Assembly: GCA_943356375.1 (NCBI GenBank)
Contig: CALRET010000003.1
Location: forward strand, 1 to 36,418
Reading direction: 5' to 3'
Source of the DNA: Candidatus Nomurabacteria bacterium
GTDB lineage: Bacteria > Patescibacteriota > Minisyncoccia > Phycocordibacterales > UBA9973
DNA: 36,418 bases
The translations under genes were made by a program, and so were the position numbers. Shown one piece after another: positions 1-28,325 of this stretch (positions within the stretch are counted from its first letter, which is position 1; each line of letters opens with the position of its first letter). Under the pieces are notes generated by a model. It had not been told where the DNA came from and did not search any database. It saw nothing but the letters and a program-made list of their open reading frames with translations.

Positions 1-39
1 GACTTTCACCAACTAGTGTACTCAATCGCATGGCGACCC
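1..39 (-). other. 5' part of a putative intron/insertion in 16S rRNA at about pos. 1396/1397 (truncated by window edge)
   Basis: After CTTGTACTC the universal ACCGCCCGTC is absent and replaced by GGGTCGCCATGCGATTGAGTACA. The internal GAGTACA can pair with exon TGTACTC. Confidence 0.65.
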
Positions 40-1467
<1,428 letters not shown>

Positions 1468-26642: not shown

Positions 26643-26717
26643 AGAGGTAGTATATCAGTTCTAATGTCCAATTAGTACATAGAAAAAGAGCCCTATTTCT
26701 AGGACTCTTTTTCAATG

Positions 26718-27045
26718 CGCGGCCAACCGGGCTCGAACCGGCAACCTCTCACGTGCACTAAATCCAATATTTTCATAAAGGCGTGGACTATATCTTTACC
26801 AATAGGTGTAGAGTTCCCTTCGCCGAGAATACTCGGCATAAGTGTTCGCTACGCTCCCTTAGGTACTCCGGTATCTAGTCTCTACGGCGCCCCCGACCGT
26901 ATGTCGGGGTTCCCTCGGTATTCGCATATCCGTCACATGACGAACTTAGCCTCCACCGATATCCCAGAGAGTTTCAATCTGCCCTTTCGACAGAAAGCTG
27001 CACGAATCTACAGGCGAGTGCTCTAACCAGTTGAGCTATGGCCGC
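26718..27045 (-). tRNA. tRNA-Asp(GUC) interrupted by a group I intron (exons 27045-27010 and 26755-26718)
   Basis: Spliced product GCGGCCA TA GCTC AACTGGTTA GAGC A CTCGC CTGT|CAC GTGAG AGGTT GCCGG TTCGAGC CCGGT TGGCCGC G forms a complete 74-nt cloverleaf. Confidence 0.93.
26756..27009 (-). mobile_element. group I self-splicing intron, 254 nt, no internal ORF
   Basis: Exon U before the 5' splice site pairs U-G with IGS GCAG; P7 elements GTAGAGACTA (26885-26876) and AAGATATAGTCC (26796-26785); ATCGGTG/TACCGA P4; terminal G. Confidence 0.92.
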
Positions 27046-27716
27046 AAATGTTTAAACTTTTCAAAAATTACCCTCTTTCTCTTGAGATACAGTATAGGTA
27101 AATCTTTGACCATACCATTATACATAAAATCATATAATTTCAAAGAGTCTTTGGCGCTGAATTGCAAACGGGAAAAATTTCCTTTTGCTGTATATAAGGA
27201 TCCTCCCACTACGCCATGAATACGAAGTCTTTCGTGTATATCATGTAAAAATCTATAAGAACAAGAAGTAAACATTGTCTGCAACCCGAGTAAGGGAATT
27301 TTTCTTGATTTATGTAAAAATCCAACCCATACATTTCCATCTCCATCAAAATATCCCCTAATGAAATCAGGAAAATATTTTTTCGAAATATATGGTACCG
27401 CTAAACTTTTTGTTTTATTTTCTGAAAATCCAATTGCTCTTAAATCATTACACATCTCTATACTACCAATCTGTAACCGATATTGTGTCTTCTCAGTACG
27501 ATTTTTTCTTTTCCGAACACTGATTGCGTGATTTGATCCGATAATTTTTCTGATAGAAAAAAGTAGATTTCTATCTGTAATTTGAATACACCAAAATTGC
27601 CCGCCTCGTTTATTTACCGTAATATATCCGTCTGCAGCAAAAAATCCGACTACGTATGCCATGGTACCCGTCCATTTTTTAAAAAAATTCTTATTCACCT
27701 TTTTATATACAGGCAT
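27036..27716 (-). CDS. free-standing double-motif LAGLIDADG homing endonuclease
   Basis: AYVVGFFAADG and DFIRGYFDGDG motifs; stop codon lies inside tRNA-Asp; ATG 27716 is 6 nt after TG-c-TAGTAT. Confidence 0.9.
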   Translation of the reverse strand: MPVYKKVNKNFFKKWTGTMAYVVGFFAADGYITVNKRGGQFWCIQITDRNLLFSIRKIIGSNHAISVRKRKNRTEKTQYRLQIGSIEMCNDLRAIGFSENKTKSLAVPYISKKYFPDFIRGYFDGDGNVWVGFLHKSRKIPLLGLQTMFTSCSYRFLHDIHERLRIHGVVGGSLYTAKGNFSRLQFSAKDSLKLYDFMYNGMVKDLPILYLKRKRVIFEKFKHLRP

Positions 27717-27791
27717 ACACACATACTAGCATGTGACAGGAAAATATACTAACCATACACCCGAACAATATTGGAGAAAAAATAAGAAATG

Positions 27792-27865
27792 TGTCGACGG
27801 GTGGAATCGAACCACCGACCTTGGCTTTATGAGTGCCACGCTCTAACCGTCTGAGCTACGCCGAC
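27792..27865 (-). tRNA. tRNA with CAU anticodon (elongator Met or Ile2)
   Basis: GTCGGCG/CGTCGAC acceptor, TGGCA-CTCATAA-AGCCA arm with A31:A39 mismatch, TTCGATT T-loop. Confidence 0.9.
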
Positions 27866-27918
27866 AATAGGAGAAATATAGCATATTTTTACTAAATTTC
27901 AATATGATGAATGATTTT

Positions 27919-28272
27919 TTATTTTCTCCGTTTGAAAGTCCGTATTCTATGACAGTTTGCACATACGAGTTCACATTTTTCAATTTCTTTCTTCACTTTA
28001 TCCATATTTGATGTTTGTTGGTAAAATGTGGAAATATTAAATTCTTTGTTATTACCTATATGATCAAATTCTAAGACTTCAGGATATTCCTTCCCCATAA
28101 ACCCACAGTCGGTACATTTATTATTCTGTTTATAATCTAAAATGAAATCAGAAATCTTTTTTTTAATTCTGTCAACATATCCTATATGCTTTTCTCTGTT
28201 CTTGGGATACCAAATTTCCCGCATATATTTCTTATGACGTTCTTTCCTTTTTGTTATATCTTTATAGGGCAT
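27919..28272 (-). CDS. free-standing HNH endonuclease
   Basis: CTDCG...LEFDH...CELVCANCHRIRT zinc-binding HNH pattern; likely start MPYKD at 28272. Confidence 0.88.
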   Translation of the reverse strand: MPYKDITKRKERHKKYMREIWYPKNREKHIGYVDRIKKKISDFILDYKQNNKCTDCGFMGKEYPEVLEFDHIGNNKEFNISTFYQQTSNMDKVKKEIEKCELVCANCHRIRTFKRRK

Positions 28273-28325
28273 AATACTCATAAATCATAGCATTTATGAG
28301 CCCCTACTGTAAATACATAAAATTG

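Follow-up and report, generated by a model that had tools for sequence, protein, structure and literature searches.

A free-standing LAGLIDADG nuclease gene at the 5′ edge of an intron-bearing tRNA-Asp gene in a Patescibacteria chromosome

The locus and its parts

The stretch of 36,418 nucleotides (nt) at positions 1 to 36,418 of contig CALRET010000003.1 (assembly GCA_943356375.1, Candidatus Nomurabacteria bacterium, phylum Patescibacteriota), here called the window, carries a free-standing gene for a LAGLIDADG homing endonuclease that ends inside an aspartate transfer RNA (tRNA) gene, and this tRNA gene is itself interrupted in its anticodon loop by a group I intron without an open reading frame (ORF). 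All positions are those of the window, and the nuclease and tRNA-Asp features are all on the minus strand. An initial annotation had placed the LAGLIDADG gene outside an ORF-less intron, with its last codons and stop within tRNA-Asp nt 1-10. Both statements are confirmed, as an intact free-standing gene adjoins the 254-nt intron, in which there is no ORF, and the sequence of 27045..27036 serves both genes. The parts of the locus are the following.

27036..27716, minus strand: free-standing double-motif LAGLIDADG homing-endonuclease gene, 226 codons from the ATG at 27716 (ORF, Pfam, motifs and structure model)
27038..27036, minus strand: stop codon TAG of the nuclease gene, which is tRNA-Asp nt 8-10 (sequence)
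27036..27045, minus strand: 10-nt overlap, in which tRNA-Asp nt 1-10 provide the nuclease gene with its last three codons and stop (sequence)
27045..26718, minus strand: whole tRNA-Asp(GUC) gene, with nt 1 at 27045 and U35 at 27010 (sequence)
27010..27045, minus strand: tRNA-Asp(GUC) 5′ exon, nt 1-35, 36 nt long by virtue of one extra D-loop nt (intron-aware ARAGORN and sequence)
26756..27009, minus strand: ORF-less group I intron of 254 nt in the anticodon loop, between nt 35 and 36 (Rfam RF00028 and 13 homologous copies)
26718..26755, minus strand: tRNA-Asp 3′ exon, with the discriminator G at 26718 (sequence and intron-aware ARAGORN)

The 3′ codons of the nuclease gene, TTG CGG CCA TAG, are drawn from tRNA-Asp nt 1-10, and the stop is U8-A9-G10. 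Joining of the exons gives the anticodon loop CUGUCAC, and hence a GUC anticodon. The window tRNA-Asp is missed by ARAGORN at its default settings and by Rfam at gathering thresholds; with introns allowed, ARAGORN reports tRNA-Asp(gtc) i(37,254) at the locus.

The match of the intron to Rfam RF00028, at 27019..26764, covers all of model positions 1-253 with 35.3 bits (E 2.4e-7), the curated gathering score being 50 bits. A U precedes the 5′ splice site and the last nt of the intron is G, as group I splicing requires. No ORF of at least 40 amino acids was found on the intron's own strand, and no second credible group I intron was found in the genome. Relatives have 13 homologous introns of 203-270 nt, each at the identical site, after ...CCTGT and before CACG, and each with a final G. 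RNAalifold on the 13 intron copies yields 45 consensus pairs, 20 of which have compensatory changes, and in the alignment the catalytic core is invariant and the peripheral helices are variable. The intron is a conserved, real group I ribozyme, and from its sequence self-splicing is predicted.

The start of the nuclease gene at ATG 27716 is supported by the conserved N-terminus of relatives, MPxYKK..FFKKW being invariant in 28 of 28 aligned sequences (the window protein and 27 homologues of 59-68% identity). An in-frame GTG is present upstream at 27722, and the gene call in the protein database starts at an internal Met to give 208 amino acids. Pfam LAGLIDADG_3 is matched at 39.1 bits against a cutoff of 22.5 (E 9e-10), and the aspartates of both motifs, GFFAADG (D29) and GYFDGDG (D126), are invariant in all 28 sequences. 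An AlphaFold model (predicted local distance difference test, pLDDT, 83.9; predicted template modeling score, pTM, 0.84) has two alpha-beta-beta-alpha-beta-beta-alpha domains, and the best matches to it found by Foldseek in PDB are I-AniI, I-Tsp061I and the bI3 maturase at E of about 1e-9, with I-HjeMI also among the best; with phmmer it is only the first domain (residues 20-82) that resembles I-AniI (E 1e-4). The fold and both LAGLIDADG motifs are thus common to the window protein and to I-AniI, I-Tsp061I, I-HjeMI and the bI3 maturase (PDB 1p8k, 2dch, 3uvf and 2ab5, respectively), but those four are encoded inside introns whereas the window nuclease is free-standing. Its gene is single copy in the genome. 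The protein database has at least 1409 relatives at E ≤ 1e-3, the named ones being from Paceibacteria/Patescibacteria. Judged by its motifs and predicted fold, the protein looks like an active enzyme, and the patchy distribution, the remnants and the single fixed insertion site described below are indirect evidence for site-specific cleavage and homing.

A nuclease family at tRNA 5′ ends

When the window protein was compared with 201 genomes of the same bacterial family, a homologue match was obtained in 52, and in all 30 of the family loci examined a tRNA gene on the same strand is directly downstream. Six of the tRNA-Asp genes, intron-bearing and of the type B introduced below, were missed by ARAGORN and resolved from sequence and the intron alignment. 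The 30 loci are distributed as follows.

tRNA-Asp downstream, 18 loci: identity to the window protein at least 46%, stop at tRNA nt 8-10 in 16 and at nt 19-21 in 2
tRNA-Cys downstream, 2 loci: 33-37% identity, ORF end at tRNA nt 18 or 21
tRNA-Leu(TAG) downstream, 2 loci: about 28% identity, ORF end at tRNA nt 15
tRNA-Leu(GAG) downstream, 8 loci: 24-30% identity, ORF stop 1-10 nt before the tRNA

With 16 of the 18 orthologous loci stopping at nt 8-10, and the other two at the next TAG, the overlap of nuclease gene and tRNA-Asp is not due to chance. It is not universal, however, since the ORFs of the tRNA-Leu(GAG) clade, and similarly that of L228, stop just before the tRNA, and so tight insertion, with the overlap as its by-product, is a likelier explanation than a required control. 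In L010 (G111) and L012 (G101) the nuclease ORF ends in a different frame, continuing through tRNA nt 1-18 (..AAVAQR) with the D-loop TAG as its stop, and endings of this type are also seen in several database homologues.

In a sample of 401 genomes from the phylum, 36 have a match, and 25 of the 29 loci fetched have the tRNA-abutting layout (Asp 9, Cys 3, Leu 11 and Phe 2). The tRNA-Cys, tRNA-Leu and tRNA-Phe genes that adjoin paralogues have no intron, and so it is position at tRNA 5′ ends, not an intron partner, that defines the nuclease family. Among carriers, which alone were compared in this respect, the tRNA-Leu(GAG) genes have variable D arms. The window ORF is a member of a large Patescibacteria family, each lodged immediately 5′ of one particular tRNA gene. 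A literature search, with subscription journals and supplements outside its scope, turned up no account of LAGLIDADG genes next to tRNA genes, nor of a group I intron in a bacterial tRNA-Asp gene.

The tRNA-Asp locus was resolved in 161 of the 201 family genomes, and it has a full-length nuclease gene in 17, a C-terminal remnant in 9 and neither in 135; the full-length gene of G178 has an in-frame TAA. Local synteny is tRNA-Met, tRNA-Met, tRNA-Asp. The spacer between tRNA-Met and tRNA-Asp measures 16-460 nt at empty sites and about 700-940 nt where the nuclease gene fills it, and in 13 of the 17 carrier loci a tRNA-Met on the same strand ends 35-90 nt upstream of the nuclease match. Its counterpart in the window, which is probably the left homology arm and the first gene of the transcription unit, is as follows.

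27791..27865, minus strand: tRNA-Met(CAT), 74 nt before the nuclease ATG (ARAGORN and Rfam)

Nuclease genes from one genus are scattered in the nuclease tree, which is poorly resolved (6 of 13 inner branches unresolved). Patchy occupation of sites, remnants and a scattered tree together are what would be expected if a homing element invades, decays and is then lost. The gene has the features by which nuclease genes of the SegB and Mob kind are recognized: it stands alone between conserved genes, is sporadic among relatives and has decayed copies.

Metagenome contigs from four DNA runs were compared with the locus at a likeness threshold of 85% and with short sides (21-38). Contigs joining 26755 to 27010 exactly are present in X1 (depth 2.6, side 38) and X8 (depth 221, side 21), and in one X8 contig 27038 adjoins 27790 (side 21). 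The contigs probably come from tRNA-Asp loci of other community members that lack intron or nuclease, and are no more than a hint of naive alleles coexisting in these communities. Many contigs of metagenome-assembled genomes begin or end in or at tRNA-Asp (for example those of G007, G027, G038, G067, G070, G073, G087, G088, G104, G137 and G152), which may reflect strain-level presence and absence of nuclease and intron breaking the assemblies, or simply repeats.

The intron is found in 10 of the 17 tRNA-Asp loci with a full-length nuclease gene, in 2 of the 9 with a remnant and in 1 of the 135 that are empty, and the co-occurrence of nuclease and intron is accordingly 10/17 versus 3/144 (Fisher 2e-9, uncorrected for shared ancestry). 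All four states, with and without nuclease and with and without intron, are present in this one bacterial family. Nuclease-bearing but intron-less tRNA-Asp loci make up 7 of the 17 family carriers, and in the phylum sample the intron is present in one of nine tRNA-Asp carriers and absent from eight. Because of these intron-less carriers, and because paralogues abut intron-less tRNA-Cys, tRNA-Leu and tRNA-Phe genes, the intron is not required, whether for protection of the resident allele or as the partner that defines the nuclease family.

Three loci have the intron only; two of them keep a C-terminal remnant of the nuclease gene and G016 does not. At G016 (L222), the one clear intron-only locus, the position of the nuclease gene is taken by a 239-nt spacer with a small hydrophobic ORF of about 70 amino acids, and just before the tRNA is a promoter-like TTGAAA...TACTAT. 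Two further candidates for this state were dropped, G011 because of 10 N at its exon/intron junction and G062 because its contig starts inside the intron.

With introns allowed, ARAGORN also calls anticodon-loop inserts of 186-248 nt in relatives, namely in neighboring tRNA-Met(CAT) genes (L014, L016, L018, L078, L091, L102, L104, L107, L110 and L111), in tRNA-Leu(CAA) (L007) and in tRNA-Pro(GGG) (L036 and L117). Going by these calls in Met, Leu and Pro tRNAs, candidate tRNA introns seem common in this bacterial family.

Alleles of tRNA-Asp and how they may be read

There are two types of tRNA-Asp gene in the family, each polymorphic within genera. Type A has a normal D loop. In type B (L014, L019, L095-L111) the D loop is two nt shorter and the T arm is unusual (GGGGTCAGCACCC). 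Some 25 of the 161 resolved genomes have type B. They are scattered in genera where type A also occurs, and type B is enriched among loci with nuclease or intron; most of its nuclease-free copies are without a remnant. That type B might be a marker spread by the nuclease was considered and not supported, a remnant being present in 2 of 16 type-B loci that are nuclease-free and intron-less and most of the spacers being 18-93 nt.

In intron-less alleles of type A, the segment running from nt 10 to nt 31 measures 23 nt in 118 genomes free of the nuclease, 3 loci with a remnant and a single carrier, G138, whose anticodon stem is changed. It is 24 nt, through a 1-nt insertion in the D loop, in 4 carriers, 2 remnant loci and 2 nuclease-free genomes. 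The +1 D loop is therefore found in 6 of 10 such alleles with a nuclease gene or remnant versus 2 of 120 that are nuclease-free (9e-7, uncorrected for ancestry), and the +1 variants comprise at least four different insertions. In the other five type-A carriers the intron is present, G178 having both intron and insertion. All 10 of the type-A carrier alleles thus differ from the common nuclease-free allele, and do so between the D loop and the anticodon loop. After splicing, the window tRNA-Asp matches nuclease-free alleles such as G191 and G179 exactly over nt 8-56; since its spliced exons are those of a common nuclease-free allele, only the intron distinguishes its tRNA body.

The best reading of these observations, to which we give an even chance of being right, is that the gene is that of a free-standing homing endonuclease with its cut site within tRNA-Asp, and that the intron is one of several immunity devices and a co-converted passenger. 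The nuclease gene, which fills the spacer between tRNA-Met and tRNA-Asp, would probably be transcribed with both tRNAs, and ribonuclease P (RNase P) would release tRNA-Asp from the transcript, making the insertion harmless just as splicing does for a nuclease gene borne by an intron. The enzyme would most likely recognize the conserved body of intron-less tRNA-Asp, from the D arm to the anticodon arm, and because this is a few tens of base pairs from the nuclease gene the insertion of the latter would leave the site intact. Carriers would then have to alter the tRNA gene, whether by the group I intron at 35/36, as in the window, by a 1-nt D-loop insertion or by a changed anticodon stem. A second change, in the tRNA body of carriers, is the pattern to be expected of an enzyme that recognizes the tRNA gene body and so keeps its site despite its own upstream insertion. 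When a naive allele is cut, repair templated by a carrier would transfer both the nuclease gene and the protected tRNA allele next to it, along with the intron, with the two conserved tRNA genes as homology arms, and the ORF-less intron would spread as a passenger by trans or collaborative homing.

Several points weigh against this reading. That the target is in the region from the D arm to the anticodon arm, and with it the position of the cut, is inferred from nothing but the alleles that co-occur with the gene. The type-B carriers G135 and G139 share their tRNA-Asp sequences with the nuclease-free G018 and G009 and so have no visible immunity change; type B itself may be refractory, or the target site may reach into the spacer. 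The standard allele is present in the remnant loci G174, G076 and G075, and the +1 D loop in the nuclease-free G132 and G163. The identity matrices of nuclease and intron are weakly correlated (r 0.32, permutation p 0.057, 9 taxa), and the counts ignore shared ancestry, some pairs (G021/G055) being near-identical. The 40 family genomes without a resolved tRNA-Asp locus are another such point, as is the nature of the promoter and terminator assignments given below, which are consensus matches only.

The type-B carriers would be accommodated if the nuclease instead recognized the junction of the spacer and the tRNA 5′ end, with its own insertion destroying the site and no further immunity being needed; intron and D-loop variants would on that account be linked to it only by co-conversion or descent. 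We think this rather unlikely, though the gene does always end at the tRNA 5′ boundary, intron-only (G016) and nuclease-only loci both exist, and there is a precedent in the trans homing described for MobE in phages (PMC2790892), where the cut is nearby and the intron is co-converted. The spacer upstream of tRNA-Asp is not conserved in nuclease-free genomes and would make a poor half-site, and linkage alone can hardly explain why four different +1 D-loop insertions are concentrated in alleles of carriers or ex-carriers.

Less probable still, and in our estimation unlikely, is collaborative homing in the strict sense put forward by the initial annotation, in which the cut made by the nuclease in intron-less tRNA-Asp falls exactly at nt 35/36, protection is by the intron and the two are obligate partners. 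Cutting at the intron insertion site is the arrangement described in phages (PMC3984707), and here too a free-standing nuclease gene adjoins an ORF-less intron, the two co-occur at the frequencies given above and, with window exons equal to nuclease-free alleles, the intron is the sole difference in the tRNA body. That much of the proposal stands, including a protective role that the intron could have in the window itself. What does not survive is the obligate partnership: the intron-less carriers of the family and the phylum sample, and the paralogues at intron-less tRNA-Cys, tRNA-Leu and tRNA-Phe genes, do without the intron as protection, and the changes linked to carriers are in the D loop, 14-19 nt from the insertion site. 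It is very improbable that the protein is a domesticated one, acting as a maturase for the adjacent intron or as a regulator or processing factor of the tRNA locus and not as a mobile nuclease, for although the bifunctional I-AniI and the bI3 maturase are among the solved structures closest to it, and probable co-transcription with the intron-bearing tRNA lends a little weight, the two catalytic aspartates do not vary, occurrence is patchy and decayed remnants are found, most family members adjoin intron-less tRNAs and an intron-only locus (G016) persists.

Known systems, expression and neighboring features

The case for a nuclease that cuts within tRNA-Asp and takes the intron along can be set beside known systems. 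It has in common with phage collaborative homing (PMC3984707) that a free-standing nuclease gene is within recombination distance of an intron lacking a nuclease, that nuclease and intron are statistically associated and that the interrupted sequence is otherwise that of nuclease-free alleles. It differs in being on a Patescibacteria chromosome, with an enzyme of the LAGLIDADG type, a tRNA as the host gene and a U8-A9-G10 stop within that tRNA; moreover many carriers are intron-less with D-loop insertions, and a cut at the insertion site is here only hypothetical. In trans homing of the T4 nrdB intron by MobE (PMC2790892) a nearby free-standing nuclease mobilizes a non-autonomous intron by co-conversion after cutting elsewhere, and cutting of this type, away from the insertion site, fits the D-loop evidence from tRNA-Asp carriers. 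MobE, however, is a phage HNH nicking enzyme acting at a protein-coding gene. T4 SegB (PMC2330249) is a free-standing nuclease among tRNA genes whose site includes a conserved tRNA motif and with which flanking tRNA genes are co-inherited. It is a phage GIY-YIG enzyme and, unlike the window nuclease, has no fixed position at a tRNA 5′ end, no tRNA overlap and no intron partner.

Closer phylogenetically, group I introns in tRNA genes of the Candidate Phyla Radiation (CPR), and LAGLIDADG genes in CPR 16S introns, receive no more than a passing mention in PMC8172020. The latter genes share with that of the window the phylum, the nuclease superfamily and a conserved structural RNA as target, but are inside a ribosomal RNA (rRNA) intron, while the window gene is outside its intron and at the 5′ edge of a tRNA. 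To the known systems the window adds a free-standing nuclease with a probable passenger intron in a bacterial chromosome, of the LAGLIDADG type and at a tRNA gene.

It has long been asked how group I introns without an ORF move and persist in the tRNA genes of bacteria. If the preferred reading is true, it extends collaborative or trans homing from phages to cellular chromosomes and LAGLIDADG enzymes. It also suggests that processing by RNase P can take the harm out of a selfish insertion, and it may account for part of the atypical tRNA genes by which CPR annotation is hampered, that of the window, with its escape from default detection, among them. With four natural states, decayed genes and candidate resistance alleles at hand, the question is directly testable with a small protein and short DNA substrates. 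A broader proposition, speculative but in our view a real possibility, is that tRNA genes of the ultra-small CPR/Patescibacteria are under continual attack by diversified LAGLIDADG nucleases, each specific for a tRNA gene, that the 5′ leader is a harmless parking place thanks to RNase P, and that the many ORF-less group I introns in CPR tRNA anticodon loops, odd D-loop lengths and alternative tRNA-Asp types are the scars of immunity or its passengers. Such a conflict would offer 'immobile' tRNA introns of bacteria a definite route from one species to another.

Two features bear on how the genes may be expressed.

27875..27902, minus strand: promoter-like TTGAAA-16-TATATT (consensus scan; the region is no richer in such sites than shuffled sequence)
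26682..26713, strand not assigned: A/T-flanked hairpin directly after tRNA-Asp (seen in the sequence; not called by the terminator scan)

The former, at 27902..27875, is upstream of tRNA-Met and is the only promoter-like site on the minus strand between the HNH gene described below and the end of tRNA-Asp. The terminator scan called no terminator, and the consensus scan found no tRNA-Asp promoter within the 3′ end of the nuclease gene. Some nuclease-free relatives have TTGAAA-N17-TATAAT just upstream of tRNA-Asp. From its sequence the hairpin is a possible bidirectional terminator, and a similar one follows tRNA-Asp in G011. A co-transcript of tRNA-Met, nuclease gene and tRNA-Asp is plausible, because the sole promoter-like site is upstream of tRNA-Met, no terminator is called and the hairpin follows tRNA-Asp. 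The genome encodes RNase P RNA (96.6 bits) and transfer-messenger RNA (125 bits), and cleavage of the co-transcript by RNase P at tRNA nt 1 would strip the nuclease message of its last three codons and stop. No Shine-Dalgarno sequence is evident before the nuclease ATG.

Between the two tRNA-Met genes, at 27919-28281 on the minus strand of the window, is an ORF of 120 amino acids that resembles HNH endonucleases and has a C-terminal CxxCH, its Pfam HNH score of 21.1 bits being just under the cutoff of 21.4. Homologues with 62-66% identity are in the same tRNA cluster of G103, G075 and G178 only, and it looks like a second sporadic free-standing nuclease gene in the tRNA island. Elsewhere in the window, the 16S rRNA gene (11-1466, minus strand) has an insertion of 64 nt near position 80 of the Rfam model, where the model has 6 nt; 16S expansions of that kind are typical of CPR rRNA.

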